NCBI RefSeq assembly: GCF_000469585.1
Contig: NZ_AWNK01000004.1
Span: forward strand, 40,311-104,310
DNA length: 64,000 nt
Source of the DNA: Chrysiogenes arsenatis DSM 11915
GTDB taxonomy: Bacteria; Chrysiogenota; Chrysiogenetes; Chrysiogenales; Chrysiogenaceae
Reading direction: 5' to 3'
Position 1 is the first letter of the stretch. Every line of letters begins with the position of its first letter. A model generated the notes under the pieces. It did no database searches. It saw nothing but the letters and a program-made list of their open reading frames with translations, and was not told where the DNA came from. Positions 1-49,900 of this stretch are shown piece after piece. The translations under genes were made by a program, and so were the position numbers.

Positions 1-360
1 GTTCCAGAAGTTGAATTCGCTAAACTCGGAACCTACCACCATACCATCAGCTATATTTTAGCGCGGAGCTGGGGTGTTGCGCCGATGATTTCCGAAACGA
101 TCCTCTCCCATCACGAAAACGGTGCTGTGCGCGTCCCTGGCACAATGGCCATGGCGAAAGTTTCCGCTGCGCTCCAACTGGCCGACTATCTCGACTTGAT
201 TTATCAGCATAAGATTGGCAATATCACTGGGGTTGATACTTGGCCTGAAGAAGAATGGGCTGAAACACACGAAGAAACCCTTTTTCAACTTGATCTTGAT
301 GGCGCACAACTGAGCGACTTAATTGATGATTTTTTTATTTTCCTTGGTCAACAGGAGTAA
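1..360 (+). CDS. C-terminal fragment of an HDOD-domain signalling protein (5' end lies outside the window)
   Basis: Frame 1 is open from base 1 to the TAA at 358-360. Motifs resembling the C-terminal half of HDOD domains (..ILSHHEN.., ..LQLADYLDLIY..). The stop lies 3 nt before the next gene. Confidence 0.5.
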   Translation, partial: VPEVEFAKLGTYHHTISYILARSWGVAPMISETILSHHENGAVRVPGTMAMAKVSAALQLADYLDLIYQHKIGNITGVDTWPEEEWAETHEETLFQLDLDGAQLSDLIDDFFIFLGQQE

Positions 361-363
361 CGA

Positions 364-14192: not shown

Positions 14193-14287
14193 ACCACCTC
14201 CTCAAACGTACCGACTAAAAACCAGAATACATAAGAAATAGATACTACTCTTATTCATGAAAAAAAATCAATGGAAAGCACGTCTAC

Positions 14288-17188: not shown

Positions 17189-17419
17189 GCACTCTCCATC
17201 CAGTAGGAATTTTCATTGTACATATTGAACAGTCAATTCTATCCCCTCGTTCGTAGAAACTCAACCGCGAAGTGATTGTAACGCCATTCGAAACGTTTCC
17301 CCATGCACCTTTTTTCGCATTAATAATTTTACATTTACAGCGATTCATTTGAGATTTACGTGTGTTAGTATTGCACCAATTTTCTTTACTTCGTTGAAAT
17401 AGGTACGGGGGTTACCACA

Positions 17420-33696: not shown

Positions 33697-34551
33697 TTAT
33701 TCCCGCAGGGATATTTCTTTGTCCCACTCCCAGTAAAACGTGAGGTAAGGTTCGTTTGGGCGCCTCCACCCGAGTGAGATATGGCCAAGCATGGCATCGG
33801 GAAATCTTGAGAGGATCTGGATCACCGATGCGCGGCGAGAAATACTCAAGATCTCAAAGCATTGATCCTGCACGCACGGTAAGATATCCCTAATGGCTAC
33901 GTTTAAATCATACACTCGCAAATCCACCCCTTGGCTCTGTGGCGGAGTGTTGACGTACAGAATGTCCAGTTTTTTTTCGCCATCCACAGTTGCGACACCA
34001 ATCCGATCAAGTAGGCTACCGAAGATCGGTTCAGTAACAACCTCAGGAAGCAGTAAGGGAATCGTGGCTATGGTAGCACCGGGAACCATGTGGTAAGAAG
34101 TCACGCGCTCAAGTTTCCCACTTCGAGCCCGCCATTTGTAGCCACGACACCACAATGCCGATGGTTGCCAATAAAGTTGTTCTCCAACTTGCGTGGACAA
34201 ATGAACGGGAAATTCAAGATAGAGCTTGATGACCTCTGGCGTCGCTGACGACACGTTTTCCGGAGAGACTACCGCCGATTCAATTGCCAGATAACAAAAA
34301 TTTGCACGATCCCAATCGGCAAGAATTGATTCAGATACTATGTTCGGAACACCGCCAATCTCCTGAAAATGGGAAAACAATTCCATAGGGTCGAGATTCT
34401 GTTTATCAAACCCAAAAAGCAATCTACTGCCATCAAAGCCATTTGGTGTAATTTGCAGCGAACGTTCCCACCCTACCACTCTTGAACCCAACCAATGAGC
34501 GATTTGATAATAAACATCAAGAGTCAGAAGCTTATTGGAGTGGTTACTCAT
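33697..34551 (-). CDS. Hypothetical protein, last gene of the export operon (no recognisable domain)
   Basis: 284-aa ORF overlapping the SecA-like gene by 8 nt. No TM helix or signal peptide is obvious and no motifs are recognised. Confidence 0.5.
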   Translation of the reverse strand: MSNHSNKLLTLDVYYQIAHWLGSRVVGWERSLQITPNGFDGSRLLFGFDKQNLDPMELFSHFQEIGGVPNIVSESILADWDRANFCYLAIESAVVSPENVSSATPEVIKLYLEFPVHLSTQVGEQLYWQPSALWCRGYKWRARSGKLERVTSYHMVPGATIATIPLLLPEVVTEPIFGSLLDRIGVATVDGEKKLDILYVNTPPQSQGVDLRVYDLNVAIRDILPCVQDQCFEILSISRRASVIQILSRFPDAMLGHISLGWRRPNEPYLTFYWEWDKEISLRE

Positions 34552-36502
34552 AACTGGTAAATGTCATCCTTTTTTGACTTTCGCGTGTTGCCGTGTTCAT
34601 AAATCGACGTAAGCGAAAGGCTTTTAACTCAGCTCGGTGCTGTGTAAGTCGAATCATTGTTGTCCATAATTTATTATGGGGCCAGTGTTCTGCCAAAGAA
34701 CACAGAACGCGCAAAACGCATTTTGGCAACACGGCTCGCATAATCCCATCCTCAAGCGAAACCAGTGGGTACGCTTCGCCCGGATTTCCCTGCCGCCCAG
34801 CGCGACCGAAAAGTTGCCAGTCAATGCGAGCCGACTCATGCGGCTCCATCATGATGACGCGTAACCCTCCTGCTGCCATTACTTCCCTCGAAAGCTTAAT
34901 GTCCGTTCCCCTTCCCGCCATGTTCGTCGCTATCGTGAGTTGCCCTTTCTCGCCTGCACGGGCAACAATATCGGCCTCTTCGGTGAGCTTTTTGGCGTTC
35001 AAGAGCTGATATTTTACCCTCTCCCGATCAAGCCGACCGGCAAGTTGTTCGCTATCTTCAATGGTACGTGTTCCTACCAGCACAGGAATCTCCCGCACAA
35101 GCAATTCCCGCAAAAGATTCAATAAACCAAGCTCTTTTTCCTGTTTCGTTACAAACAGCTGAAAAGGCTGCACGATCAGTTGCGATGGAAGTCGTGAAGG
35201 AATTCGGAGTGTGCGTATCCGATAGTTAAAAAACAGCTCATGAGCAATATTCTGCAGTGTGCCACTCGCACCCGTCAGGCGCACATAATGTTTAAAATAA
35301 TTCTGAAAACTCATCCGCGCTAACGTTTTATTCGGGTGAGTGAGTGGTACACCAGCGCGAGCCTCTACTGCTTGATGCAGGCCGTAGCTCCACGATCTAC
35401 CCGGCATAGGACGGCCAGTGCCTTCATCAACAATCACCACCTCGTCGTCAAGCACTACATAATGCTGATCCTGAAGAAAGTAATCACGCGCTAGCACAGC
35501 CTGCGTAAATAAATCATGGCGTCTATGTCGGCCTCGCCAAATAGGGGGAAGCTCTTGAGCCATCTTTTCCATTAACTGTTCACCATGTGTCGTCCAACGC
35601 ACATCTCGGTGCAGCGAACTACACTGATAATCTCGGGGCGACTGTAATCTATCGACCAGCGTGCGTGCGACAAGAATAGCTTCGTGTAGTACTGGATTAT
35701 GATCTGCTCCAGAAATAATCATCGGAGTAATGGCTTCATCAATCAAAATATTATCGGCTTCATCGACAATTGCGGTATGAATGCCGCGCATCAGTAATCG
35801 ATGTGCGGTTTGCCCTTGAAGCATACGCACACTCATGGTCAGAGGCGTCACGGAGCCGCCGAAAGTGATTTGATCGGTCAGATAGTCGGCTAAGAGCTGC
35901 TTGGCCGTTGAATACACAACATCGGCAAGATACTGCGTTGGCTTCTCTTCCTGAGTATGGGTTTGCAGCACCGTAGCAACGGAAACACTGCAAAATTCGT
36001 AGAGCGGTGCCAACTCAGTAGCGTCACGCTCGGCTAAGTAGTCATTGGCAGTAATGACGTGACAAGGTCGGTTGCTCCACCCGAAAAGAATAGCGAGTAA
36101 GCCAATCGTAAGAGTTTTCCCCTCCCCTGGTGCTAGCTGTACCAAATATCCATCAAACATGGCGAGAATGGCTGCCATTTGCACTTGATATGGTTCCATG
36201 CCCAGCAGTCGCACCGATGCAAGTTGAAGGAGAGCAAGTGTTTTATGCAATAACAACCGTTCTGCAGAGAGTTGACCGGCAAGCGCGTGCAAGCGCATTG
36301 CATTCAGCTGATGGATCAATGCTTCTGGAGTCAAATCAGCGAGAGCGCGATAGTGCCGACCAATACCATCTGCTTCTTGCAGATAGTCACTCACTAGTTT
36401 TTTTTCTCGCCAGCGATGCCGCACCAGATGCCATTTTACGATGCACCAATACGGCTCTTTCGGGAGTTTTTTTAACGATGGAAGTTGCAACGATGCGAGC
36501 AT
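34544..36502 (-). CDS. Truncated SecA-family ATPase (SecA DEAD motor, ~650 aa, lacks the C-terminal scaffold/wing/tail)
   Basis: Co-linear SecA motor motifs: ..LAPGEGKTLT.. (Walker A), ..HVITANDYLAERDA.., ..VDEADNILIDEAITPMIISG.., ..LTGASGTL.., ..VLVGTRTIEDSEQLAGRL.., ..LLNAKKLTEEADIVARAGEKGQLTIATNMAGRGTDIKL... The protein ends ~80 aa after the last motif. Confidence 0.8.
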   Translation of the reverse strand: MLASLQLPSLKKLPKEPYWCIVKWHLVRHRWREKKLVSDYLQEADGIGRHYRALADLTPEALIHQLNAMRLHALAGQLSAERLLLHKTLALLQLASVRLLGMEPYQVQMAAILAMFDGYLVQLAPGEGKTLTIGLLAILFGWSNRPCHVITANDYLAERDATELAPLYEFCSVSVATVLQTHTQEEKPTQYLADVVYSTAKQLLADYLTDQITFGGSVTPLTMSVRMLQGQTAHRLLMRGIHTAIVDEADNILIDEAITPMIISGADHNPVLHEAILVARTLVDRLQSPRDYQCSSLHRDVRWTTHGEQLMEKMAQELPPIWRGRHRRHDLFTQAVLARDYFLQDQHYVVLDDEVVIVDEGTGRPMPGRSWSYGLHQAVEARAGVPLTHPNKTLARMSFQNYFKHYVRLTGASGTLQNIAHELFFNYRIRTLRIPSRLPSQLIVQPFQLFVTKQEKELGLLNLLRELLVREIPVLVGTRTIEDSEQLAGRLDRERVKYQLLNAKKLTEEADIVARAGEKGQLTIATNMAGRGTDIKLSREVMAAGGLRVIMMEPHESARIDWQLFGRAGRQGNPGEAYPLVSLEDGIMRAVLPKCVLRVLCSLAEHWPHNKLWTTMIRLTQHRAELKAFRLRRFMNTATRESQKRMTFTSYE

Positions 36503-36504
36503 GC

Positions 36505-38652
36505 TTACTGGATCTGATAGCGTGATTGTAATAGCTGCCGCACTGCCAGAGCTATTTGCTCCAGAAGCGGTCTGGGCGACAATGCAATACGCATGACACC
36601 AGGAGCACCATCATAGAAAGCCGTTGGTGATTCTGAAAAACGCGCAATCACCTCAAAAAACGGCTCATCAGTTCGTAATCTCCCTTGAGCATCAGCTTGA
36701 GCAAAGAGCGTACCACCTCCTTGAAGTGCGAGTGCCGAAGAAGGGAGCTCGTGCTTCTGATACGGAATAAACTGCAGATCATGACTCTCCAGTGGCGAAG
36801 TAAACTGCCCAGGCAGACGGATTTCGGCACGTAGCAAGTTCGATCCGAAAAGATCTCCTGCCTGCTCTTGGGTAACAACACCGACAAACTGCTGCTTGCC
36901 CGGAGTAATCATTACCCCTAAACGCTCTCCACGCATAAAATGCGAATTGACCCGCGCCGGCATCACATCACTTACCCAGATCCCATCAGTCGGTGCCACC
37001 GTCTTGAGTCGATCAAGTCGTTTGTCAAGTTCATCCAGACGCCCCACCAGAAACGACTCGCGGTCATAGAGCGCTTTTAAATCACCCTGCTTACCATCCG
37101 TTGCTTTGCGGATAAGCCAACGAGTTTCCACCAATTGTTGCCCTGTCAGTTCATACTCCAGTTCTAATTCTGGATTGATAAACTCCATCAACACACTGCC
37201 TTGCTGCACGGTATCGCCAGAACGAACGACCAGCGCTGTCAAGGTTCCACCGGCTTCCGCATACAACGGCATCCGCTGCTCAGACAAAAGCACCCCCGGC
37301 GCAACAAGGGCATACGGCAGAGGAAATGTTGCCAATACCAGCAGAATGAGCAGCGGGGTAACGGCAGAAACAACGATGGCACGACGGCGATTCTGCCGTA
37401 ATTCGCTGCTTTTACGAAGATATTGCACGAGTTTCAACGTGGGGCCAATGAGCCACATGTAGCACATTGCGAGTAACATTAAAACACCGAGAAACAGTGA
37501 AAGGTCGGCCATATAAAGCAAAATCGCCACCATAACGAACAGGCGGTAACCAAAACTTGCGGCACCATACCCATAATACCAGTAACGTTCGTTACGGTTT
37601 TCCGCCGGCTCCTGCGCATCTTTGGTGCCAAGAAGTACTACGTTCGCAATATAATGCCACTGACGCCCCGCTTTCTGATAGAGATTCGGCAAATCAATCA
37701 GATCGGAGAGGACATAATAGGCATCAAATTTCAGCAACGGATTTCCATTAAAAACAAAACTCGAAATAGAACCAATAATCATGATGTTAAAAGCAAGACC
37801 ATTGACAAACCCGGGTGCTGTCAACCCCCAAACAATCGCCGCCAACGCCGCAAAAAACAACTCAACATACAGACCAGAGACTCCGACAAATGCGCGGTGC
37901 CACTTACTGCGCATTGACCATGACGAGCTCACATCAATGTAAGGAAGCGGAGCCAGCGCGATAAACATCACCCCAAGCGTATAGACATCACCACCAGAAC
38001 GGCGACATGCTATTGCATGCCCCATTTCATGAAGAAATTTCAAGAGAAACATGGCGACATAAAGCCACAAAAGGTTATCGACGGCTAAAATCCCTTGTGC
38101 CTGACTCGTAAACGATCCGAAATGGTCAATCACCGACTTCGCACCAAACAAAACCACAAGCAACCAACCAACAAAAGACCATCGCGAAAAAAAACGTTGC
38201 AGCCATCCGATATTGTTCTTCAGAAATTCATTCGGATTCCAAAGTGGAATTCTAAAATAGAGAAATGCCAGCAGGTGAGAAAGCTTTTCCTTGCGCCGCT
38301 GCTCCGCGTAGCGCTCGAAAATTGATTCGCTCTTGCCCTGTGAGCGGAAGAACAGAAGGCTCATCTGATGCAGTTGGGATAATAACATAATGACGGCATC
38401 TTGACTCGGTGCATCTTCGGGATACTCTTCCGTAAATGCTATCCAAAGCTCTTCAACCGTTCTTTCCGGAGTAAGGCGCGCAAGGAACAGATACGCCGGT
38501 TCCTGAACGCGGTAGTACTTCTCAGAACAACTATCTTGCAGCACATACCAGACCTGATCGCGATAGATCTGTTTATGAATGCGGATCGTCGGCAGTAAAC
38601 CAAGCCGCAGTGTCGCAACCTGATACCAAGATTCGCTGAATGTCGCAGACAA
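36505..38652 (-). CDS. Fusion of a site-2-protease-like M50 intramembrane metalloprotease and an HlyD-type periplasmic adaptor (MFP)
   Basis: ~170-aa cytoplasmic N-domain. Polytopic region with HExxH (..LHEMGHAIAC..) and a downstream NPLLKFD (third zinc ligand). A later TM helix and a ~300-aa C-terminal region with biotinyl/lipoyl-like and beta-barrel MFP character (..GTLTALVVRSGDTVQQGSVLMEF..). Confidence 0.75.
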   Translation of the reverse strand: MSATFSESWYQVATLRLGLLPTIRIHKQIYRDQVWYVLQDSCSEKYYRVQEPAYLFLARLTPERTVEELWIAFTEEYPEDAPSQDAVIMLLSQLHQMSLLFFRSQGKSESIFERYAEQRRKEKLSHLLAFLYFRIPLWNPNEFLKNNIGWLQRFFSRWSFVGWLLVVLFGAKSVIDHFGSFTSQAQGILAVDNLLWLYVAMFLLKFLHEMGHAIACRRSGGDVYTLGVMFIALAPLPYIDVSSSWSMRSKWHRAFVGVSGLYVELFFAALAAIVWGLTAPGFVNGLAFNIMIIGSISSFVFNGNPLLKFDAYYVLSDLIDLPNLYQKAGRQWHYIANVVLLGTKDAQEPAENRNERYWYYGYGAASFGYRLFVMVAILLYMADLSLFLGVLMLLAMCYMWLIGPTLKLVQYLRKSSELRQNRRRAIVVSAVTPLLILLVLATFPLPYALVAPGVLLSEQRMPLYAEAGGTLTALVVRSGDTVQQGSVLMEFINPELELEYELTGQQLVETRWLIRKATDGKQGDLKALYDRESFLVGRLDELDKRLDRLKTVAPTDGIWVSDVMPARVNSHFMRGERLGVMITPGKQQFVGVVTQEQAGDLFGSNLLRAEIRLPGQFTSPLESHDLQFIPYQKHELPSSALALQGGGTLFAQADAQGRLRTDEPFFEVIARFSESPTAFYDGAPGVMRIALSPRPLLEQIALAVRQLLQSRYQIQ

Positions 38653-38655
38653 TTC

Positions 38656-40536
38656 CTACCTCCAGAGCGCAAGACGGATACGATTCAGCGTCTTGTGTGT
38701 ATAGATCCAGAAGTACGACCGTGGTTGCACATGAATTTTTGCCACCCCAGTCATACCAGGGCGCCACCACGTTTCACCATCCTCTTCAAGTTGAGCAATC
38801 ACGGTAAACCGCGCCCCCTCCTGCGACTTCACCTCAGCCATTGGAATTACGCGACTGATTCGCAGGGGAATTTTCCGCCCTGGCTGGCTGACCAGCGCAA
38901 ATTCGCCAATACTCCCCTCGCGCACATGGTGAATGTCGTCATGCGCTACTTCAACTACCACATATACATCTTCGGTTTGTGCAATACGCAGCAGGGGTTG
39001 CCCTTTGGAAACAGGTGCTGAAATCAGCTCGCGCCGCTCCCCTTCGACCACTACCCCAGTAAAGGGAGCGTGCATATGTGCTTGCGAAAGCTGATAATTC
39101 ACCCGCTCCATACGGGCTTTCACCTGCTCAATCCGTGCCAAAGCAATCGCCAAGTCCACACTGGTAAACTCTGCCCGAGCCCGATCAGCTTCGGTTACGT
39201 TTCGCTGTAACTCCGCTTGGAGTTCGGCAAGTTGCATCAGCAAATCTTGCACATCAAGCGTCAGCAACGGATCACCTTCCACCACCTCGTCACCACTGGT
39301 GACATAGGCATCGATGATCACCCCCTCAAAAGGGGCCGTAATGAGCCGAGTATTGTCCGTAACAAACTGCCCAGTCCCTTCAACAGTATGCATGGTGGAG
39401 AATGTCAGCGAGCCAAACAACAGTAAAGATCCAGCCAGTACCAACGACTTAACCAGCAGATTTTCTGCCCCCGCAAGACGGCCAATTGTGCGCAGAGCAA
39501 CCGTCCGCAACCGATCGCGCCATTCGGCATCTTGCAAATACAATTGTTCCAGCCGCGGCATCACGGTTCGTGCCAGAAAGTGCACCGCCTCGCAAGGAAG
39601 TTCCGGCAAATCATCACGGTAGTTGACGAGTGTCAATGCGAACACGGTATGGCCGTGAGAGTTCACAAGCGGAAAAGTCATAATAGATCGTGCCGCAAGG
39701 TGGGTTTGTAGTTGTTGATGAGCAAGGGTAATTACCTTTCCATCCGAAGCACGGTGACTTGAATAATGAATGGCGGCAACCTGATCCACCGACTCCTCTA
39801 AAGCCGCTTCAAACAGTCTAACGGTATCGGTTTTTTGCTCAAAGCGCTCATAGTGGCTGATCCCCTTTACCCGTGTATACGCCCCCTCTTTCCAGCCCAG
39901 CACGACCTGATCAAAGGCGCTCTGGTAATTAACGATGCCATTGGCTAACGCATACACAGCCGCTTGAAAGTTTTCGGATTGATATATTTCGCTCAGCAAG
40001 TCGAGCAAGCTTGCGAGCATGTTTTCGTGCGCCGTTTTCCGCGCATCAACTGCTTTTGACTCTGTACCTAACAACGCTGACGTGTTCAAGACGGACTCAT
40101 CCTGCACAAAGTCGAGCATTAACTGGGCACGCACAAGAATGTCGTTCAAACGTGTTGCAGCATCACAATCAATCGCTAAAATCAAAAAATATGGGGTAGG
40201 ACACAACGCACGGAGCGCGACGAAGCCGATTGACCCATCGATATGGGGATGGGGTGGACGGTGGGCAAATCCACTGGCTTCGGCCCGCTGCAGAAAAAGG
40301 AAAAATTCCTGCGTGTCTAACAAAGGCTTTGACGGGCTTTTCTGTTCTAAATCGCTGGTAGCAACCAAAAGCAGTTGATGTTCCTGTACCAAAATGAGTT
40401 CCGCACTCGGCACACGGCATACGTTCTTGACGAGCACCAGATAATCTATCCACGATGCTTGACCTGCTTGAGACTGAGTGACCCGTACGTGGTATAATTC
40501 CTGTAATCGTTGGCGAAATGCTTCTTTAGAGGCCAT
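38656..40536 (-). CDS. HlyD-type periplasmic adaptor with a large (~370 aa) N-terminal cytoplasmic sensory-like domain (GAF-like; uncertain)
   Basis: Single TM helix (..LLVKSLVLAGSLLLFGSLTF..) followed by a coiled-coil and MFP lipoyl/beta-barrel segments (..APFEGVIIDAYVTSGDEVVEGDPLLTLD.., ..APFTGVVVEGE..). The N-terminal 370 aa are soluble and alpha/beta-like. Confidence 0.7.
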   Translation of the reverse strand: MASKEAFRQRLQELYHVRVTQSQAGQASWIDYLVLVKNVCRVPSAELILVQEHQLLLVATSDLEQKSPSKPLLDTQEFFLFLQRAEASGFAHRPPHPHIDGSIGFVALRALCPTPYFLILAIDCDAATRLNDILVRAQLMLDFVQDESVLNTSALLGTESKAVDARKTAHENMLASLLDLLSEIYQSENFQAAVYALANGIVNYQSAFDQVVLGWKEGAYTRVKGISHYERFEQKTDTVRLFEAALEESVDQVAAIHYSSHRASDGKVITLAHQQLQTHLAARSIMTFPLVNSHGHTVFALTLVNYRDDLPELPCEAVHFLARTVMPRLEQLYLQDAEWRDRLRTVALRTIGRLAGAENLLVKSLVLAGSLLLFGSLTFSTMHTVEGTGQFVTDNTRLITAPFEGVIIDAYVTSGDEVVEGDPLLTLDVQDLLMQLAELQAELQRNVTEADRARAEFTSVDLAIALARIEQVKARMERVNYQLSQAHMHAPFTGVVVEGERRELISAPVSKGQPLLRIAQTEDVYVVVEVAHDDIHHVREGSIGEFALVSQPGRKIPLRISRVIPMAEVKSQEGARFTVIAQLEEDGETWWRPGMTGVAKIHVQPRSYFWIYTHKTLNRIRLALWR

Positions 40537-40548
40537 AAAACCACACCA

Positions 40549-41433
40549 TCACAGCTGCACTCGCGCTTTTAATCCTGGCCGAAACCGATTATCCACGTTG
40601 CGATATTCAACCTTCACTTCGACTAATCCACTTGCCGGATCAGCTACTGGTGAGAGAAAAGAAATCGCCCCTTGTGCGCGCGTGGATTCCACTGCAAAAT
40701 CAACTTTTTGCCCTATCGTAAGCTTCGCTGCGATAGCACTCGGAATACTGATGCGGATGTAAATATACGAAGTATCAACCAGTTCGATGATCGGCTCACC
40801 CGCCTGAGCCCATTCCCCTTTTTTGAGGCGAATTTGGGTGATAAATCCTTTACTGGGCGCGAGTAGAGTCCGTTGGGCAAGGACTTGTCGGCCAATTTTA
40901 TAATCGTAGTCTTGTTTTTTTTCTTCTAACTCAAGCAGTGCAACTTCGCTCTCTGTTGTGACTCTATTGATGATCATTTGATTGAGCTCATCAAGACTGA
41001 TTGATCTACTTTCATGGTACAACTCAAGAGCGGATTTTACTTGCTCCACTTGCAGCAGTAACCGAGCGCGAGCCCCGTCCAATGCACTCTTGTCCCGCAT
41101 CAGCGTTTCAAGGCGCGACAGTTCAAGTTGCTCAATATGTTGCTCCAGCACCAAGAGCGGTGTTCCCTGATCGACGTAGGCTCCTTCTGCGATCTTGACT
41201 TCACTGACCACACCGCTAACCGCCATTGCGAGCAAGTAGCGCTCACGAGGGTACACCACACCTACCATCGCATCACTTATTGCAACCGTCTCATGTGGAC
41301 TCACCTCTGGACTAAATGAACGGAAATCGCCACGCGAACGAGTGCTTGGAGCCTCGCTCGCTATAGCGAATACATTCAAGGACAAAAACAGCAGGAAAAA
41401 AATACAGTTGGTCAATCGCATAGTGCCCTTCAA
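40549..41433 (-). CDS. HlyD/RND-type periplasmic adaptor subunit (membrane fusion protein), secreted or lipid-anchored
   Basis: N-terminal signal/anchor (..CIFFLLFLSLNVFAIA..), lipoyl motif (..ISDAMVGVVYPRERYLL.., ..APSKGFITQIRLKKGEWAQAGEPIIEL..), and an alpha-hairpin. Confidence 0.8.
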   Translation of the reverse strand: MKGTMRLTNCIFFLLFLSLNVFAIASEAPSTRSRGDFRSFSPEVSPHETVAISDAMVGVVYPRERYLLAMAVSGVVSEVKIAEGAYVDQGTPLLVLEQHIEQLELSRLETLMRDKSALDGARARLLLQVEQVKSALELYHESRSISLDELNQMIINRVTTESEVALLELEEKKQDYDYKIGRQVLAQRTLLAPSKGFITQIRLKKGEWAQAGEPIIELVDTSYIYIRISIPSAIAAKLTIGQKVDFAVESTRAQGAISFLSPVADPASGLVEVKVEYRNVDNRFRPGLKARVQL

Positions 41434-41437
41434 AATT

Positions 41438-43060
41438 CTACAGTGCTTCTACGTCAAACTGAATGCCGAGTTCCTGCAACAGGCTACCATCCGAAAGCTG
41501 AAGACTGATTTTTGCCAGTTCATATTGAATCTCGGCATCCACCATACGGATTATACCCACGTTGAGATTATCTTCGCGCTCAATCATATCAATGTAGCGC
41601 GCTACACCGCGGTCAAACCGTTCCCGCTCAATTTCAAGCAGTTCCTTGAGGACAGTGGTATTCTGCCGATGACGATCCAACTCTTGATACGCTTGATCTA
41701 CCTGTGCAAGCCGCAACTGAAGTTGATTTGAAAGGTCTACCTTTACCGCTTCAGCCTGATATTGATTTTGGGTAATTCGTGAAAGCGCTATGGATTCTTT
41801 CGAACGCGCACTTTGATTACCACCTAAAGGGATGGAAAACTCAACACCAGCATACCAGTTGGGATAACGCTCCGAAAATGCTTCTTCAAAAGTTCTGCCG
41901 TAGCGCTCATCATACCGAAGGCTACTTTGGCCATAGCCCGCAACAAAATCGAGTTTTGGACGCAACTCATCGCGGGCTATCGCCAGAGAATGTTCTTCCA
42001 GCGCAATACGTTCTATTGCAATTCCGTAATTCGGCCAAACACTGAGAACCTGCTCAAAGTAAGTCTGAAAACTTTCCGGCTGTTGCCACGCGGTAGTGTC
42101 AGGCTCTGAAGTCGTCTGAAAAACAACGTGCTGATATTCATTGGCTGAGAGGTTGAGAACCCCCTTAATCGCACTTTTCACTTGTTCATACCCGCGCTCT
42201 ACGACAAATGATTCTGCCTGACGAAGTAGAAGGGTAGAACGGGCTTCGGTCATAGCAGTTTGCGGTAAGCGCCCAGCTTGCACGCGCCGCTCAATATCGG
42301 TGAGGATATTATTCGCATTTTTCAATGAATCTGCATTCAAAGCTTTCATCTGTTCGGCACGGTACAGCCGCCAGTAGAGGCTGAGCGCATCGTATGACTT
42401 ACTCAGAATCTGTTGCTGAGTTTCCTGTTTGCGGATTTCAATCTGTTTTTCTGATTGTGCGATCCGATTCTCAATTTGAGCCGCCCCAAATCCGCGCAAA
42501 ATTGGTTGACGGATACGGAAATTCAGCGAACCGACATTGTCGTTAATCCCAGTAGGATCATTCACCGAGCTCGTATTATTATAGCGTTTATGCCCTTCAT
42601 ATTCGACAGAGACCTCAGCCCCAGAAACGACTAACGTGCGCACGCCAAACTGAAAACGACCATTGCGGTCTATCGTCGTGTCATTAGGGGCTAACGGATT
42701 ATTTTCGGTTTTTCGCTCATCAGCACGGAGTATTGAAAAAAATTCCATCTCGTATGCGGCGCGATCATGCTGTAGTTGCGCCTCAGCAATTTTTTTCTGC
42801 TCTGCACTTACGAGCACCTCAGGATTGCGTAGGAGCACAAGGTGCACGAAAGACTCTTTATTTAGAGCCACAGCACCTTGTTGTATTTGCGTCAGCACTT
42901 GTTCGTGGCGATTCATGTCACCATGAGAAGGTTGACTCTCGGCCCACGCGGGAATGGCCAGACACGCTGCCGAAACCGCTAAACCTGCAAAAACTTTTTG
43001 GGGGCAAGAAAGTATATTCCGTATCATCGTCAACCTCTTTGTATCGGCATAGATGGCCAT
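41438..43060 (-). CDS. TolC-like outer-membrane efflux factor
   Basis: Signal peptide. 540 aa with the two-fold repeated helical/beta structure and coiled-coil-rich Q/L/E/R repeats typical of outer-membrane factors. 4 nt upstream of the MFP gene. Confidence 0.85.
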   Translation of the reverse strand: MAIYADTKRLTMIRNILSCPQKVFAGLAVSAACLAIPAWAESQPSHGDMNRHEQVLTQIQQGAVALNKESFVHLVLLRNPEVLVSAEQKKIAEAQLQHDRAAYEMEFFSILRADERKTENNPLAPNDTTIDRNGRFQFGVRTLVVSGAEVSVEYEGHKRYNNTSSVNDPTGINDNVGSLNFRIRQPILRGFGAAQIENRIAQSEKQIEIRKQETQQQILSKSYDALSLYWRLYRAEQMKALNADSLKNANNILTDIERRVQAGRLPQTAMTEARSTLLLRQAESFVVERGYEQVKSAIKGVLNLSANEYQHVVFQTTSEPDTTAWQQPESFQTYFEQVLSVWPNYGIAIERIALEEHSLAIARDELRPKLDFVAGYGQSSLRYDERYGRTFEEAFSERYPNWYAGVEFSIPLGGNQSARSKESIALSRITQNQYQAEAVKVDLSNQLQLRLAQVDQAYQELDRHRQNTTVLKELLEIERERFDRGVARYIDMIEREDNLNVGIIRMVDAEIQYELAKISLQLSDGSLLQELGIQFDVEAL

Positions 43061-43128: not shown

Positions 43129-43875
43129 TTATGACTCAGCGATTACAGGCTCTGTTTCACCTGGCTTCAGGCTCGTCTGCCCATCTTTTAGCATCGCCAA
43201 GCGTTCAAGTTGGCTGAGTGAGGTTAAATGAGCAAAGATAGGCGCAAAGTAGCGCTTTTCGCGTATTTCAAGAAAGCGCTTATCGGAAAGATTATTCAAA
43301 CGCTCCTCATTGATCACATAACAACCAGTTACGTTGCGAATCTGCCCACCGTAGCGCACACGCATACTGAGCGGAGTAAAGAGATTATTTTCAGCCATGA
43401 ACGTACAGAATGCCTTCGTGAAGATCTCCATTTGTTGCATTTCGCCAAGGTATTTTTTTACATTGTCGATGATCACGGTTGGCTCACCTTTTTCAAACAA
43501 CGCTTGGCCATCTTTTGTCCCAACACAGTCCGCATCTTCATCAATGCAAACTGTAAATTGATCAGCTTGATCACTTTTAGCGAGGGCAAAAGGGTAACGG
43601 CGGATAATGGCTGGCACATATGAAGCCTTCCAACTCCCATCTTCAGCGATAAATAGATTTTCTCCGGCATCAAGGCCAAACATCACAACAGGCTTAAATT
43701 CATCCTGCTCTTTGTCTTCAAGGAAAACAATCGGATACACCGATGCCGCCCGAGCAAATTCATGCACCATGAGTGACGCAATATGAAACTTACTGGCAAA
43801 GGCAAAGCTGCTAATAGGTGTCACTTTTGTCTTCGCATGTTTGTCCTTGTTAAGCGGAACCAATTTTTTAAACAT
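43129..43875 (-). CDS. SapC-family protein
   Basis: 248 aa, co-linear with SapC-family (PF07277-type) proteins (..FARAASVYPIVF.., ..AIIRRYPFAL..). GGAGG RBS. 26 nt downstream of the giant gene. Confidence 0.7.
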   Translation of the reverse strand: MFKKLVPLNKDKHAKTKVTPISSFAFASKFHIASLMVHEFARAASVYPIVFLEDKEQDEFKPVVMFGLDAGENLFIAEDGSWKASYVPAIIRRYPFALAKSDQADQFTVCIDEDADCVGTKDGQALFEKGEPTVIIDNVKKYLGEMQQMEIFTKAFCTFMAENNLFTPLSMRVRYGGQIRNVTGCYVINEERLNNLSDKRFLEIREKRYFAPIFAHLTSLSQLERLAMLKDGQTSLKPGETEPVIAES

Positions 43876-43901: not shown

Positions 43902-46900
43902 TTAAAACTCAAATTCTTCCTCTGTGTAGAAGTCGAAAATGAAACTATCTTGAATACTTGAGCCAAAGCTCGAAAACTGGAAGTCTCCATAGAAGTTAAC
44001 CACCTTGCTGGAAGTATACGGCATTTGCAGGTTGAAACCTGGCTCTAAGCCTACTGGCGCTTGCTGCATAAATCCAAAGTCGAAGTTGATGCCACCAAAC
44101 ATTCCGTCAGAGATGCCAAGATCGCTCAAGTTCATAAAGGAACTCATGGTGGCTTTCTGTAAACGTGACAAGCTTGCATGATCAAGGAATGTTGTCGCAT
44201 TGTGCAAACGCAGAGCATCCATATTTTCTATCGATAATTCTTGGATTGTTTTACTTGCACTAGCCGAAGCGCCTCCCCCTTGAGATCCACTGAAGCGCAC
44301 TGACTCAAAAGCACTCAATTTGAATTCCGCTCTCACTGGACCATGAACAACGGCGTGATTACCCACAGAAATCACGTACACTCGCTGATCAATACCACGG
44401 ATACCAAATATATAGCTATCACCAGTAGCATCATCAACAACACTATACAGTTGCCCAGGACCGACAATGCCATGAATCTGCGCTGCATCTATCTTCAGTA
44501 AGTCAGCGCGGATAGCTTCAAGTTGAGGTATCAGGCTTGCTACTGGCTGATCAATAAAAAACGGTATCGTCTTGATAAACACCTGATTGGCAACAATATT
44601 GGCTGCTTGTGTCCCGAGCGAACTCTGGATACGATATTCCGAACTTTCAAGCCACACATCACCACCCGTCGCAACGTGAGCAATCAACAAAATACTATCG
44701 GTCGAGGTAAAGTAAATATCGCCTCGCTCTGATAATGTCTGTGCACTTGCTTTCATCTCTATGACCGGAGCCGTGTAACGAACTTCCCCCTGCCCCGTCA
44801 GCGACAGAGTGGCCTCTTGCACAATACTTTTTCCAGATGAAAGGACAACGGTACTATCGACGCCTGAGATATTCATAGCAAGAATCAGTGAACCATGTAC
44901 GGCATGGAGTTCGATAGTGCCATGACTACTCGTTCCATTCAGCATTGAATCCGTAATTTCTTCAACAAGAGCTTCATTGGTCATCCGCAGCACCGTTAGC
45001 TCACCGAACTGGTCATTATCACCAATGCGCAAATCTTCTTGGGCGGCAAGGAAGATACCACCATGACCAATATCCGCACTCAGTGAATCGACTTCAACCA
45101 CAAAAGGACGCCCTGATTCACCAAGTTGACTACCAGTAACCCGCAGATACTTTGCTAGGATATTCACGGTACTTGAAGGAGCACTGGTTATGACGCCACC
45201 AACCAGACTGACCGCAGTTGGAGTTGTTACATGAGAGATGGACATACTGTGAGTTGCTTCGATGCGAATATTGTTCTGAGTTTGCAATAGAGCTTTAGCT
45301 GTCATGGAGACTGATTGGGCACTAATGTCGAGCGTCGCATCTCCTGTAATATGAACCAGACTGTCGATAAACTCCACATTGCCGTTCCGCGCTAACAACG
45401 ACACATTACCACTGCTGGCAATGTCGCTCTGCACGATAATGGATCCATTTTCAACTTCTATTTGTAAGTGCTCGCCAGAGAAATTCAACGCACCATCAAG
45501 TATAAAGTTTCGCTGCTCACCGGAAACGCCTGCCTGCACCATTATGACAGTTACGGTGTCGGTTGCCAATTCAAGCTCAGACAAACGCAGATCACCACTA
45601 GTGGTAATGGTATTTAACCCCGCTATGGTGAATACCCCCTGCAGGGTAGTAGTCCCGCCACTGTGAGCACTTAGATCGCCACCAACCGTGAGGTTTCCTT
45701 CAATTGTCAAAGTTTCATCGGTTTTGATAGTCGTGTCACCGGTGATAGTGATTGCATCGCTGAGTATTACTGCTCCGGTTCCGGTGATAGCAAGGTCGCC
45801 GCCAATCTCTAGTGTGCCTTCGACGGTAGTTGCTCCGCCGACTGTCAGGGTAACATTGGCGCTGGTGAAAGTTCCTTCTATCAGCAGGGCATCGGTTGAT
45901 GTTAGTTCAGTACTTCCTTCAACGATAAAGATTCCGTCTAGGATGCTCTCGCCTGCACTGCTTGTGGTAAGGGCGCCACCAACAGTGAAGTTTCCTTCAA
46001 GTGTCAGGTCAGCATCGGTCTCGATAGTCGCGTCACCAATAATAGTGATTGTATCGTTGAGCATCACCGCTCCGGTTCCGGTGATAGCAAGGTCGCCGCC
46101 AATATCTAGTGTGCCTTCGACGGTAGTTGCTCCGCCGACTGTCAGGGTAATGTTGGCGCTGGTGAAAGTTCCTTCTATCAGCAGGGCACCGGTTGATGTT
46201 AGTTCAGTACTTCCTTCAACGATAAAGGTTCCATCTAGGATGCTCTTGCCAACACTGCTTGTGATGAGGGCGCCACCAACAGTGAAGTTTCCTTCAATCG
46301 TCAGGTCGGCATCGGTCTCGATAGTCGCGTCACCGCTAATGGTGATTGCATCGCTGAGCATCACCGCTCCAGTTCCGGTGATAGCAAGGTCGCCGCCAAT
46401 ATCGAGCGTACCTTCGACTGTAGTTGCTCCACCGACTGTCAGGGTGACGTTGGCACCGCTGAAGGTTCCGGTAATCGATAAGTCTGCTTTCGCATCGATA
46501 GTCGTGTCACCGCTAATGGTGATTGCATCGCTGAGTATTACTGCTCCGGTTCCAATGATAGCAAGGCTGCCTGCAACATCCAGCTCACCTTCGATAGTGG
46601 TTGTTCCGCCGATTGTCAGGGTGACATTGGCGCTGGTGAAAGTTCCTTCTATCAGCAGGGCACCGGTTGATGTTAGTTCAGTACTTCCGTCAACGATAAA
46701 GGTTCCATCTAGGATGCTCTTGCCAACACTGCTTGTGATGAGGGCGCCACCAACAGTGAAGTTTCCTTCAAGTGTCAGGTCGGCATCAGTCTCGATAGTC
46801 GCGTCACCGCTAATGGTGATTGCATCGCTGAGCATCACCGCTCCGGTTCCGGTGATAGCAAGGTCGCCGCCAATATCTAGTGTGCCTTCGACGGTAGTTG

Positions 46901-49900
46901 CTCCGCCGACTGTCAGGGTAACGTTGGCGCTGGTGAAAGTTCCTTCTATCAGCAGGGCACCGGTTGATGTTAGTTCAGTACTTCCGTCAACGATAAAGGT
47001 TCCGTCTAGGATGCTCTTGCCAACACTGCTTGTGATGAGGGCGCCACCAACAGTGAAGGTTCCGGTAATCGATAAGTCTGCTTTCGCATCAATGTTGATG
47101 TCACCGTCAATGGCTATTGCATTACTGAGTATCACCGCTCCGGTTCCAGTGATATCAAAGTTGCCAGCAACATCCAGCTCACCTTCAATAGTGGTTGCTC
47201 CACCAACTGTCAGGGTGACGTTGGCACCGCTGAAGGTTCCAGTAATCGATAAGTCTGCTTTCGCATCGATGTTGGTGTCACCGTCAATGGCGATTGCATT
47301 ACTGAGTATCACCGCTCCGGTTCCAGTGATGCCAAGGTTGCCAGCAACATCCAGCTCACCTTCGATAGTGGTTGTTCCGCCGACTGTCAGGGTGACCTTG
47401 GCACCGCTGAAGGTTCCGGTAATCGATAAGTCTACTTTCGCATCGATGTTGGTGTCTCCGTCAATGGCGATTGCATTACTGAGTATCACTGCTCCGGTTC
47501 CAGTGATATCAAAGTTGCCAGCAACATCCAGCTCACCTTCAATGGTAGTTGTTCCTCCGACAGTCATGGTGACGTTGGCACCGTTGAAATCTCCGTCAAT
47601 CGTCAGGGCTGCATCAGTATCGATAGTCGTGTCACCGGTGATAGTGATCGAATCGCTGAGCATTACCGCTCCAGTTCCGGTGATGCCAAGGTTGCCGCTA
47701 ATATCCAATGTGCCAGCGACTGCGGTTGTTCCACCGACTGCCAAGGTGACGTTGGCGCCAGTAAAGGTTCCGATAATCGCCAAGCCTGCTTTCGCATCGA
47801 TGGTCGTGTCACCGGTGATAGTGATCATATCGCTGAGCGTTACCGCTCCGGTTCCGGTGATGCCAAGGTTGCCGCTAATATCCAGTGTACCAGCGACTGC
47901 GGTTGTTCCACCGACTGTCAGGGTGACATTGGCACCGCTGAAGGTTCCGATAATCGCCAAGCCTGCTTTCGCATCGATAGTCGTGTCACCGCTAATGGTG
48001 ATTGCATCGCTGAGCGTTACCGCTCCGGTTCCGGTGATAGCAAGGTTGCCTGCAACATCCAGCTCACCTTCAATAGTGGTTGCTCCACCGACTGTCAGGG
48101 TGACGGCGGCGCCGGTAAAGTCTCCTTCTATCAGCAGGGCACCGGTTGATGTTAGTTCAGTACTTCCTTCAACGATAAAGGTTCCGTCTAGGATGCTCTT
48201 GCCAACACTGCTTGTGATGAGGGCGCCACCAACAGTGAAGTTTCCTTCAAGTGTCAGGTCGGCATCGGTCTCGATAGTCGCGTCACCGCTAATGGTGATT
48301 GTATCGCTGAGCATCGCCGCTCCGGTTCCGGTGATAGCAAGGTCGCCGCCAATATCGAGCGTACCTTCGACGGTAGTTGTTCCTCCGACTGTCATGGTGA
48401 TGTTGACACCAGTGAAATCTCCATCTATCGTCAAGTCTGCTTTCGCATCGATGTTGGTGTTGCCGTCAATGGTGATTGCATTGCTAAGTGCAACGTTTCC
48501 GGTTCCGGTGATGCCAAGGTCGCCGGTACTCACCAGCCTACCTTCGACGTTAGTTGCGCCTCCGACAGTCATGGTGACACCACCGCCGGTGTATCTCCCT
48601 TTAAGTGTTAAATCATTTGTGGCAGAAAGGTTGCTACTTCCTGTTGTGCTAAAAGTACCGCGCAAGATACTTGCACCATCGCTGTTCGCGACGAAGTCGC
48701 CAGCAACGGTTAACTCGCCTATGATTGTCAGGTCTGCTTTCGAATCGATGGTCGTGTCACTGCGCAGCTTGAAATCACCAATAAGAACCATATTGCCCTG
48801 ACTGTTGATTGTACTGGTGCCGCTTACCGTGAGTGACAGCGCACTTGCCTGATTGCTGGTGAGCGCTCCAAGGGTATCAATGTGCAACGTTCCGGCAACT
48901 GCATTTCTACCAAAGAGGTACGTGTCGCCATCTATAAAGAGCGTCGCATCACCGTTGAGCGTAGTGACGTTCAGGCTCGCAATGCGCACCTCGCTCTGAG
49001 TATTTGCGCCAAGGGAAATATCGCCATTGGTGGCGCGCATGGTGGTTTTGCCACCAAGTCGCAATACATCATCGGTATCATTGGCCAGTGCTATTGATTG
49101 GGCGGTGAATGAGTTATCGCCCGTCACGATAAGCTGTGTACTGGCGCCAGCGGTAATACTCTCTGGCGTAGTCACATTAAGGCGTCCCGCCGTATTGCTG
49201 CCTACAAACGTCACGGCATTATCAAGTTCCAATACCACTGCGCCAGCACTGTTGACCGTCAAGGTTCCGGCAGAGAAAAAGTCACCAACAGCATTGCCAA
49301 GACGAATTTCCCCGCCAGAGAATGCGGCATGACCTGTAATCGTAAGTTGTGCTTGCGTCAGGTTGGAAAGCACATTGACCGCTTGCGCACGAAGATCTCC
49401 ACCGACAGTGATATTCGATAGGGTTAAATTGTTGGCAGCCTTCAAATGGACATTTTTGGCTTGATGCACCGTCACGGCACCACCAAAGTTATGACTATTG
49501 TCAAATACAATATCCGATGCCGCATCAGCCGTGAGCTTTGTGATTCCCGTGACCGACAACTTGCCCGTCGCGCCATCATTAAGAGAACCCGATACCACCA
49601 GTTCTAGTGTTTTAGCAGTGCTTTCCCCCGCTAACACCATATCGCCATCGTGTGTTATGCGCACATTGCCATTGCTCACAAAGGTCAGAGTGCCAGTAGT
49701 GAAGGAATCGGTATCGATAGTAACGGCACTGCCTGAGAAACGGGAATTCTCTTCAACCGCAATCTGCGCCCCCTCTAGAGTACTCAGCTCATGAACCGCT
49801 GTCGCAACAAGATTGCCGGTGACGGTCAGATTTGCCAGTGTCAAGGTATTCACATCGCTGAGTGTTACATTCCGAGCGCCGAGCACGGTCACTGCGCCAC

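Follow-up and report, generated by a model that had tools for sequence, protein, structure and literature searches.

Organization of the gene cluster

The window (the whole 64,000-nucleotide stretch of Chrysiogenes arsenatis DSM 11915 DNA analyzed here) carries on its minus strand a cluster encoding a three-domain membrane protein, a SecA-like ATPase, two further periplasmic adaptors (MFPs), a TolC-like channel and a giant repeat protein:

33697..34551, minus strand: 284-aa ORF, overlapping the stop of the SecA-like gene by 8 nt
34544..36502, minus strand: SecA-like ATPase, 652 aa, comprising NBD1, a preprotein cross-linking domain and NBD2 (Pfam SecA_DEAD 4.5e-71, SecA_PP_bind, P-loop_SecA)
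36505..38652, minus strand: RRE-M50-MFP fusion gene, 715 aa, an uninterrupted 715-codon ORF with a TTG start and its stop at 36505..36507
38656..40536, minus strand: long MFP, 626 aa (Pfam HlyD_D23 and HlyD_3 at residues 385-594)
40549..41433, minus strand: short MFP, 294 aa, with an N-terminal anchor or signal (Pfam HlyD_3, HlyD_D23; NCBIfam RND_mfp 95.4 bits)
41438..43060, minus strand: TolC-like outer-membrane factor, 540 aa (Pfam OEP 6.3e-27, two repeats)
43129..43875, minus strand: SapC-family protein, 248 aa, no transmembrane (TM) segment (Pfam SapC 3.3e-69)
43902..63995, minus strand: 3' part of a giant repeat-protein gene, the presumed substrate, at least 6,697 codons in an ORF that leaves the window

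The fusion gene lies on the minus strand; the plus-strand reading of 36505..38652 is riddled with stops and was ruled out. Its TTG start at 38652 follows a GGAGG 6 nt upstream, lies 3 nt past the stop of the preceding gene, and is supported by homologues that begin at the same position (MSxTFSESW); the product is 100% identical to a C. arsenatis hypothetical protein. The long MFP and the fusion share a reading frame and are separated by a single stop (TAG GAA TTG). Read-through of this stop was rejected: the junction occurs in 24 of 73 loci, the one-third expected by chance, and the product would be topologically inconsistent. The long MFP consists of a cytoplasmic domain of about 350 aa, for which a family search gave no assignment, one TM segment (around 356-382) and a periplasmic MFP part. 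The idea that it is a degenerate paralogue of the fusion was also discarded, as BLASTP similarity is confined to the MFP part (E=0.2).

The 284-aa ORF is probably co-transcribed with the SecA-like gene and is outside the conserved system, its homologues being absent from 80 related loci. It has no match in Pfam or NCBIfam and is not the APH-like kinase found in other loci; a weak resemblance to designed PPR repeats was observed.

Conservation of the cluster was assessed in a sample of 80 genome loci, 42 of which had enough flank for counting the short MFP (present in 38/42), the TolC-like gene (35/42) and SapC (24/42). In 67/67 loci the SecA-like gene directly follows the fusion gene, and in 67/71 a long MFP of around 620 aa directly precedes it. 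Since SapC and TolC are absent from some loci, certain components of the apparatus may have their genes at other sites. The same gene set is found in Oceanospirillum, Desulfobacteraceae, Hydrogenophaga and Thiomicrospira, further carriers include Vreelandella aquamarina and Marinomonas, and the fusion family extends to at least 594 species genomes and at least 5,507 clusters at 50% identity (E<=1e-30), where databases label it just 'hypothetical' or 'site-2 protease family'. We found no published description of the M50-MFP fusion or the gene set in open-access papers and bioRxiv.

The partners named in the first-pass annotation are encoded in the same operon as the fusion: the giant protein, the SecA-like ATPase and, as the outer-membrane factor linked to the adaptors, the TolC-like OEP. 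An ABC transporter, the inner-membrane energizer of a T1SS, was not found: neither the window cluster nor any of the 80 related clusters contains an ORF combining Walker A and LSGGQ, and none is annotated in loci L001-L004.

Domain architecture of the fusion protein

Sequence profiles and fold searches support three domains in the fusion protein, which are a PqqD/RRE-type domain, an M50/site-2-protease (S2P) core and a periplasmic MFP domain, and its AlphaFold models have pLDDT values of 82.6 and 80.7. The first-pass annotation had described an M50 protease joined in frame to an HlyD-type adaptor. The in-frame fusion stands, a single polypeptide carrying both the periplasmic MFP domain and an intact S2P/M50 site within the inner membrane; the count of two domains does not, as the RRE makes a third. 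The features of the protein are as follows:

38347..38604, minus strand: PqqD/RRE-like peptide-recognition domain, cytoplasmic, residues ~17-102
37633..38184, minus strand: S2P (M50) membrane core, residues ~157-340, TM1-TM4 with a re-entrant beta-hairpin at 226-239
38017..38031, minus strand: HEMGH zinc-binding/catalytic motif, residues 208-212, at the cytoplasmic end of TM2, invariant in homologues
37723..37749, minus strand: NGNPLLKFD, residues 302-310, the S2P NxxPxxxxD motif with the third zinc ligand
37327..37596, minus strand: three further TM helices, residues ~353-442 (hydropathy; model helices H353-384, H386-414 and H422-442)
36508..37323, minus strand: periplasmic MFP domain, residues 444-715, with lipoyl halves, alpha-hairpin, beta-barrel and C-terminal helix

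The N-terminal domain has the winged-helix fold of an RRE, with a three-stranded sheet and three helices. This fold binds RiPP leader peptides. Its third helix and third strand are highly conserved (mean column identity 0.78 and 0.73), compared with 0.47-0.59 for the MFP part.

The central region shows the S2P core fold. Across 25 homologues of 40-61% identity from several phyla, residues H208, E209, H212, N302, P305 and D310 never vary, nor do N304 and L306 within NGNPLLKFD, and no part of the protein is better conserved than segment 303-319 (mean column identity 0.85). The HEMGH motif stands at the end of model helix 191-218, with the corresponding hydropathy segment at 188-206, so that both approaches put it at the end of TM2, in agreement with the intramembrane position first assigned to it. 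The Pfam family Peptidase_M50 (PF02163) matches all 25 family members at E<0.01 (best 7.5e-9), which together with the invariant zinc ligands and catalytic glutamate argues that the HExxH is no coincidence. For the window protein itself the score is 24.7 bits (E=1.8e-5), under the gathering cut-off of 27.2, and the family profile matches solved S2Ps weakly (3b4r, E=0.098). These two scores would fit a vestigial HExxH in an M50 part that cleaves nothing and only holds the MFP domain in the membrane, as its scaffold or anchor; we consider this highly improbable, given that the zinc ligands and catalytic glutamate do not vary in at least 25 sequences from several phyla and that the active-site segment is the best-conserved part of the protein. 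The sequence conservation points instead to a putative zinc-dependent intramembrane protease.

Hydropathy and the model helices predict seven TM helices with the N-terminus inside and the C-terminus outside. The last of these (422-442) runs in-to-out, follows the cytoplasmic stretch RQNRRRA and anchors the MFP domain. This topology places the MFP domain in the periplasm, as had been proposed at the outset, and the modeled active site is accordingly predicted to face the cytoplasm.

In the model, the C-terminal half consists of lipoyl halves (444-492 and 550-561), an alpha-hairpin (494-547) and a beta-barrel (577-695). Its assignment as an MFP fold is borne out by the family profile, which finds MacA in the PDB at E=3.9e-8 along with EmrA, MexJ and LipC, by Foldseek matches to MexA, MacA and AcrA (E of about 1e-12 over about 270 columns), and by Pfam HlyD_D23, HlyD_3 or Biotin_lipoyl_2 hits in 10-13 of 25 family members. 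The label 'HlyD-type' is valid at the superfamily level only, because the model of the T1SS HlyD subfamily (TIGR01843) gives 17.0 bits against a cut-off of 208.65.

The neighboring SecA-like ATPase

The SecA-like ATPase retains intact GEGKT and DEAD motifs in alignment and corresponds to residues 33-558 of the 778 of B. subtilis SecA, ending about 50 residues later; it is without most of the helical scaffold, the wing, the two-helix finger and the C-terminal parts of SecA, and scores far under the cut-offs of all SecA equivalog models. A SecA without scaffold and two-helix finger is not known to translocate proteins, which speaks against the export model proposed below. West-Roberts et al. (bioRxiv 10.1101/2023.11.21.568195) described SecA DEAD and preprotein-binding domains without scaffold and wing, and suggested a role in the export of giant proteins.

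The constant adjacency of the SecA-like gene could be taken to mean that the N-domain of the fusion docks this ATPase, the protease having a substrate different from the giant protein, such as a small RiPP-like peptide sent through the same duct. Consistent with such a substrate, the closest curated family is that of a RiPP protease (daptide_HExxH, E=6.8e-45), and JGI names the fusion family 'putative peptide zinc metalloprotease', after YydH. However, no conserved small ORF or RiPP-modifying enzyme was found in the window cluster and four annotated loci, and little space separates the genes of the cluster. A long polypeptide is the substrate to be expected from the preprotein cross-linking domain of the SecA-like protein, and the N-domain has the fold of an RRE, which is no known SecA-binding fold. 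The last point also speaks against the suggestion in the first-pass annotation that an N-domain of about 170 aa could be the docking site for the ATPase. We regard this combination of docking and a small substrate as improbable.

Terminal motifs of the giant proteins

Ten DUF5649 repeats are present in the window's giant protein. The ATG at 63995 was rejected as the start of its gene, since no stop lies upstream before the window ends and the true N-terminus is beyond it; its LEPR-XLL leader is thus assumed from other loci. A homologue search with the last 600 aa of this protein had no hits, the protein itself included. In other phyla, the corresponding position is taken by giant genes of 13,222 and 13,361 aa.

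In 13 loci, a LEPR-XLL motif is found near the N-terminus of the giant protein, around 10-25 residues from the start, with the consensus [FY]xLExLExRxLLS[AG]D (for example MAGSDPDRQFELEALEQRIMLSADPLVG); 12 of these 13 ORFs run off the end of the locus. The NCBIfam model LEPR-8K (NF012209) matches three visible giant N-termini above its cut-off (E 3.5e-8 to 3.7e-7). At the opposite end, the giant proteins of the system share a second motif, which in the window reads:

43905..43949, minus strand: extreme C-terminal tail of the giant protein, DSFIFDFYTEEEFEF, aromatic-acidic

The tail consensus, F-E-Y-W-V-E-x-L-x-L at the C-terminus, is seen in 15 loci including this window. When the pattern [FYW][DE][YFLWD][WFY]x[ED] is required within the last 16 aa, 15 of 2,212 ORFs carry it, each of them the 3' end of a giant gene adjacent to the system. 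Searches of the giant C-termini against NCBIfam and Pfam returned no known T1SS C-terminal target domain and no RTX repeats, the only match being DUF5649 in the window's giant. Both LEPR-XLL and the C-tail are candidate recognition or cleavage signals, and LEPR-XLL is a candidate ligand of the RRE, identified by association only.

The same apparatus could operate from the other end of its substrate, with the RRE-M50 part recognizing and perhaps trimming the C-terminal tail as a T1SS-like secretion signal, and LEPR-XLL engaging SecA or retaining the protein, say. The specificity of the tail for the system's giant genes would fit this arrangement; moreover, classical T1SS signals are C-terminal, and the M50 enzymes TglG and TmoG of RiPP pathways cleave the C-termini of their substrates (PMC10885120). 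We nevertheless consider it unlikely.

A different function for the conserved catalytic residues would be release or quality control, in which the M50 cuts a stalled or jammed substrate, or frees the giant protein by severing its last tethered segment, much as RseP clears remnant signal peptides or LapG releases LapA. S2Ps such as RseP clear leftover membrane peptides (PMC8144685), and giant T1SS adhesins such as LapA stay tethered in TolC until cut. Release or quality control leaves unexplained why a highly conserved RRE of the leader-binding type is fused to the protease, and why the substrate has a short conserved N-terminal motif; we give it a small chance of being the main function.

A model for export of giant proteins

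We propose, with moderate confidence, that the fusion is the inner-membrane hub of a TolC-dependent exporter dedicated to giant LEPR-XLL proteins, operating without an ABC, RND or MFS transporter, in which the RRE captures the leader and the M50 core cleaves it. In this model the cytoplasmic RRE domain would catch the giant protein by its short N-terminal LEPR-XLL leader, which the cytoplasm-facing S2P/M50 active site would remove. The SecA-like motor, an ATPase with a preprotein clamp and no SecY-docking scaffold or wing, would then push the unfolded chain N-to-C, possibly co-translationally, and the MFP domain of the fusion would form with the long and short MFPs a tunnel docking on the TolC-like channel. 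Recognition and cleavage of an N-terminal leader at the membrane would allow such N-to-C, possibly co-translational threading into the TolC duct. The fusion alone would do the jobs that bacteriocin and RTX exporters divide between a C39 peptidase domain and HlyD. Within this scheme we infer the binding of the leader by the RRE, its cleavage and the cleavage site, the direction of transport, the inner-membrane route and the stoichiometry of the three MFPs.

Several observations count against the hub model. LEPR-XLL is not a transmembrane segment, unlike a classical S2P substrate, and the system has no recognizable inner-membrane protein-conducting channel; we know of no S2P fold that conducts proteins. 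The C-terminal cuts made by TglG and TmoG also weigh against it, as the giant proteins bear a conserved C-tail as well.

The strict pairing of the fusion with a truncated motor of the SecA type and with genes for giant surface proteins suggests a widespread and unstudied ABC-free export route. More broadly, it is an almost even prospect that this is a distinct, widespread envelope-spanning pathway for LEPR-XLL proteins of 6,000 to >36,000 aa, the largest in bacteria, in which a SecA-derived motor and the RRE-S2P-adaptor fusion replace the T1SS ABC transporter, an N-terminal leader is cleaved at the membrane, and a three-adaptor TolC duct leads outward.

These data bear on the question of how bacteria export proteins of 6,000-36,000 residues, for which they give a concrete parts list (the M50-adaptor fusion, a truncated SecA, two more adaptors, TolC and SapC) and two candidate substrate signals, the N-terminal LEPR-XLL and the C-terminal aromatic-acidic tail. 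If the model is correct, TolC tripartite machines could run on engines other than the ABC, RND and MFS transporters named in a 2021 review, an intramembrane protease could be built into a secretion channel, and the RRE peptide-recognition module would be used outside RiPP biosynthesis.

Comparison with known systems

The closest curated family is that of the daptide intramembrane metalloprotease (NF041824), which has the same RRE and S2P core, aligned over residues 23-401. The equivalog cut-offs are far from reached (153.8 vs 300 for NF041824, and 23.7 vs 225 for the YydH/EpeP/LiaK family NF058609), and by sequence the fusion is related to these families and a member of neither. Compared with the RiPP M50 peptidases, it adds three TM helices and a periplasmic MFP domain of 270 residues, and its genomic context is one of giant proteins, a SecA-like ATPase and TolC rather than RiPP-modifying enzymes. 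One RiPP M50 protease, EpeP, is thought to both cleave and export its peptide (PMC10885120), a precedent for the proposed model. RseP, SpoIVFB and the M. jannaschii S2P have PDZ or CBS domains that are absent from the fusion, where substrate selection would fall to an RRE instead; unlike them, the fusion has a C-terminal MFP domain, and its presumed substrate motif is not a TM helix.

A second, specialized SecA-type motor is likewise known from the SecA2 accessory systems and from SecA_DEAD domains in giant Omnitrophota and Actinobacteria proteins. Here the SecA is a separate protein of 652 aa paired with the M50-MFP fusion, not inside the giant protein, and has no SecY2 link. Among tripartite machines, MacAB-TolC, EmrAB-TolC and TriABC-OpmH are the relevant comparisons, MacA, MexA and EmrA being the best matches of the C-terminal domain, and TriABC-OpmH likewise has several MFP genes and one outer-membrane factor in its operon (PMC4446572). 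In contrast to these pumps, the present system has three different MFPs, two of them with large cytoplasmic or membrane domains, and no ABC, RND or MFS partner.

The giant proteins Cag_663 and Cag_665 of Chlorochromatium have a similar context, whose genes may be orthologues of those described here, and they give the export model an independent lead. These proteins of 36,806 and 20,647 aa have LEPRxLL N-termini and are encoded beside sapC and tolC, and their expression coincides with that of a secA gained by horizontal transfer (bioRxiv 10.64898/2026.03.19.712371). The same study proposed a 'sap-like T1SS', naming SapC, TolC and an unlinked HlyD; it identified no M50-MFP fusion and gave no role to the co-expressed secA.

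The PCATs, in which a C39 or C39-like domain is carried on a transporter of the HlyB/ComA/LagD type together with HlyD and TolC, tie the recognition or cleavage of a leader to MFP-TolC export, as is proposed for the fusion. In PCATs and T1SSs, as here for the presumed substrate, the substrate gene adjoins the machinery, and giant repeat substrates occur in some T1SSs (LapA type). The PCAT protease is a cytoplasmic cysteine C39 peptidase on the transporter, whereas here it would be an intramembrane zinc S2P on the adaptor; energy comes from an ABC transporter in PCATs and T1SSs, and here would come from the SecA-like ATPase, with no ABC transporter in 80 clusters. The analogy with the C39 peptidase domain, drawn when the fusion was first noticed, is reasonable, and it is strengthened by the conserved terminal motifs that the neighboring giant proteins carry.

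The fusion gene and its operon

The gene at 36505..38652 (minus strand) is a single unbroken ORF of 715 codons, the product of which is 100% identical to a Chrysiogenes arsenatis hypothetical protein. It starts at a TTG codon, with GGAGG 6 bases 5' of it and the stop of the preceding gene 3 bases away; homologues share this start position and open with MSxTFSESW. The gene lies within a compact minus-strand operon, which is flanked by housekeeping genes.

Genes and features of the operon in the window
minus strand; giant repeat-protein gene, at least 6,697 aa, ORF extending past the window end
43902..52901, minus strand; ten DUF5649 repeats within the last 3,000 residues of the giant protein (Pfam E=4.9e-132)
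minus strand; SapC gene
minus strand; TolC-like outer-membrane factor gene
minus strand; short membrane-fusion-protein (MFP) gene, 294 aa
38656..40536, minus strand; long MFP gene, 626 aa, cytoplasmic domain and one TM helix
36505..38652, minus strand; fusion gene
minus strand; SecA-like ATPase gene, 652 aa
33697..34551, minus strand; 284-aa ORF, 8-nt overlap with the SecA-like stop codon

Pfam offers no family for the 3,700 giant-protein residues ahead of the DUF5649 repeats. Searching for homologues of the last 600 residues (43905..45704, minus strand) yielded zero matches, the Chrysiogenes protein itself included; the protein collection may lack proteins of giant size or retrieve them poorly.

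The Desulfobacteraceae orthologue of the long MFP gives faint matches to GAF domains. The long-MFP and fusion genes are in the same frame, with only TAG GAA between them before the TTG (38650..38658, minus strand). Such a single-stop junction is seen at 24 of 73 related loci, a share equal to the one-third that chance predicts; it looks like tight coupling rather than read-through from one gene into the other. For residues 1-350 of the long MFP, its cytoplasmic N-terminal domain, Pfam gives nothing even at a threshold of E<=1; this domain might serve in regulation or in docking the motor.

The SecA-like ATPase aligns with residues 33-558 of B. subtilis SecA, a stretch that takes in NBD1, the preprotein cross-linking domain and NBD2; the ATPase keeps intact GEGKT and DEAD motifs. 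It stops soon after the aligned part, and thus most of the helical scaffold, the wing and the C-terminal region are missing. The 284-aa ORF matches no family and lacks a counterpart in 80 related loci; its weak similarity to designed pentatricopeptide-repeat proteins suggests that it may be a helical-repeat protein.

Domain architecture, topology and conservation

The first-pass annotation had described an intact fusion of an M50 protease with a periplasmic adaptor, and this is borne out, with three domains rather than two.

Domains and motifs of the fusion protein
residues ~17-102; PqqD/RRE (peptide-recognition) winged helix, Pfam PqqD
residues ~157-340; site-2-protease core, Pfam Peptidase_M50
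residues 208-212; HEMGH motif
residues 302-310; NGNPLLKFD motif
residues 444-715; MFP domain with lipoyl, alpha-hairpin (494-547) and beta-barrel parts

The fusion protein itself scores 24.7 bits, slightly below the Peptidase_M50 cut-off of 27.2, and all 25 aligned homologues match. Six residues of the two motifs (H208, E209, H212, N302, P305 and D310) are invariant in these alignments. The NCBIfam daptide intramembrane metalloprotease model spans residues 23-401 (E=6.8e-45) with a score below its cut-off, which makes the protein a relative of the RRE-bearing RiPP proteases rather than a member.

The N-terminal domain, previously put forward as an unassigned dock for the SecA-like ATPase, is instead a PqqD/RRE winged helix; the Pfam PqqD match of the protein is weak (E=3e-3), and 12 of 25 homologues match. 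We consider it quite improbable that the substrate is a small peptide and this domain a SecA dock.

The MFP fold is recovered by profile, where the fusion family matches MacA (E=3.9e-8) and also EmrA, MexJ and LipC, and by Foldseek, where the full-length model (pLDDT 82.6) finds MexA, MacA and AcrA at about 1e-12 over ~270 columns. The T1SS-type HlyD model gives 17 bits where its cut-off is 208. Judged by these profiles, the earlier 'HlyD-type' label is right at superfamily level only, and the domain is not a T1SS HlyD in the narrow sense.

Hydropathy and model helices indicate seven TM helices, a cytoplasmic N-terminus, the sequence RQNRRRA just before the last helix, and active-site motifs where TM2 and TM4 end on the cytoplasmic side. 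This arrangement places the MFP domain in the periplasm, as had been proposed. Column conservation peaks at the active site (0.85), with 0.78 and 0.73 in RRE elements a3 and b3 and the lowest values (0.47-0.59) in the MFP part, which argues that the protease and the peptide-binding domain are both functional. A vestigial protease is barely credible, being contradicted by the invariant catalytic residues and the conservation peak at the active site.

Distribution and synteny

More than 1,355 close homologues have the full-length architecture (~715 aa), which is carried by at least 594 species genomes, including Gamma- and Betaproteobacteria, Desulfobacterota, Campylobacterota, Verrucomicrobiota, Planctomycetota and others; the full scan gave 5,507 50%-identity clusters at E<=1e-30. 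Database labels are generic (hypothetical, site-2 protease family, PqqD family chaperone, 'putative peptide zinc metalloprotease'). The window gene set recurs in annotated loci of four distant genera, beside giant genes of 13,222 and 13,361 aa. Synteny counts were drawn from 80 genome loci, and whole-locus counts from the 42 with enough flanking sequence.

Neighbours of the fusion gene in related loci
SecA-like gene; directly downstream; 67/67 loci with sequence available
long MFP; directly upstream; 67/71 loci, close by in the remaining four
SecA-like gene and long MFP; anywhere in locus; each 42/42
short MFP; anywhere in locus; 38/42
TolC; anywhere in locus; 35/42
SapC; anywhere in locus; 24/42

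Two annotated loci, from Oceanospirillum and Thiomicrospira, have an APH/choline-kinase-like gene of ~305-328 aa (6639..7625 in L001 and 12922..13839 in L004). It is placed within the cluster or at its end and is missing from the window.

Candidate signals on the giant proteins

Where the 5' end is visible, large ORFs beside the system carry, roughly 10-14 residues in from the start, [FY]xLExLExRxLLS[AG]D. This LEPR-XLL motif was found in 13 loci (~15270..15380 in L008, ~12480..12600 in L064/L024, ~10640..10740 in L051, and ten more), and 12 of the 13 ORFs continue past the locus end. The three N-termini tested scored above the cut-off of NCBIfam NF012209 (LEPR-XLL, 'LEPR-8K'). The signal lacks a hydrophobic core, and we found no experimental description of it in the literature.

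The 3' ends of giant genes encode a common aromatic-acidic tail, F-[DE]-Y-W-[VI]-E-x-[LIM]-x-[LF]-COOH, as in FEYWIEDVVF, FDYWVENLTL and, in the window, DSFIFDFYTEEEFEF (43905..43949, minus strand); it also occurs at 5197..5226 in L002 and in loci L016, L017, L026, L030, L041, L064 and L079. Fifteen of 2,212 ORFs have the pattern in their last 16 residues, and all 15 are giant-gene ends. One Comamonadaceae group has a different tail, ...RSTGQLLTESDWTLLPQ. That the C-terminal tail is the signal recognised or cleaved finds a precedent in the M50 enzymes TglG and TmoG, which cleave at C-termini (PMC10885120), and we regard it as unlikely here.

In L064 (Hydrogenophilaceae), giant genes flank the machinery on both sides (3..974 and 12435..17708), the upstream one ending in FEYWVESLSL and the downstream one opening with LEPR-XLL, so that a single apparatus may have several substrates.

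A model for export of the giant proteins

We lean towards TolC-dependent export of the LEPR-XLL giant proteins by a machine that has other components in place of the ABC transporter of a T1SS. The N-terminal leader would be caught by the RRE and removed by the cytoplasm-facing M50 site, the truncated SecA motor would drive the chain N-to-C, and the periplasmic tunnel to TolC would be built by the fused MFP domain together with the long and short MFPs. What the sequences show is the architecture, the conservation, the topology, the synteny and the motifs, with binding, cleavage, direction of transport and the path through the inner membrane inferred. With an N-terminal signal and a SecA-type motor, export of a 6,000-36,000-residue chain could start before translation ends. 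A protease acting in release or quality control instead seems doubtful.

Comparison with known systems

A full-text search of literature outside subscription-only papers returned no description of the M50-MFP fusion or its gene set. Giant Omnitrophota proteins contain truncated SecA domains without scaffold and wing (bioRxiv 10.1101/2023.11.21.568195). Chlorochromatium giant proteins have LEPRxLL N-termini with sapC and tolC adjoining, are without known transport signals according to the authors, and a horizontally acquired secA (Cag_1676) is co-expressed with Cag_663/665 and sapC (bioRxiv 10.64898/2026.03.19.712371); Cag_1676 and the SecA-like gene beside the fusion gene might be counterparts.

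The RRE-bearing RiPP M50 proteases are closest to the protease half of the fusion protein, and one of them, EpeP, is believed both to cut its own peptide and to export it (PMC10885120). The proposed analogy with the C39 peptidase stands, as do the fusion and its topology, while the N-domain role and the narrow HlyD label do not. The fusion protein is functionally like the C39 peptidase and HlyD functions of peptidase-containing ABC exporters. In contrast to a T1SS, the defining ABC transporter is missing, with no ABC-type ATPase within any of the 80 clusters, and the system, which belongs to the tripartite TolC-dependent theme, is possibly a distinct secretion pathway.
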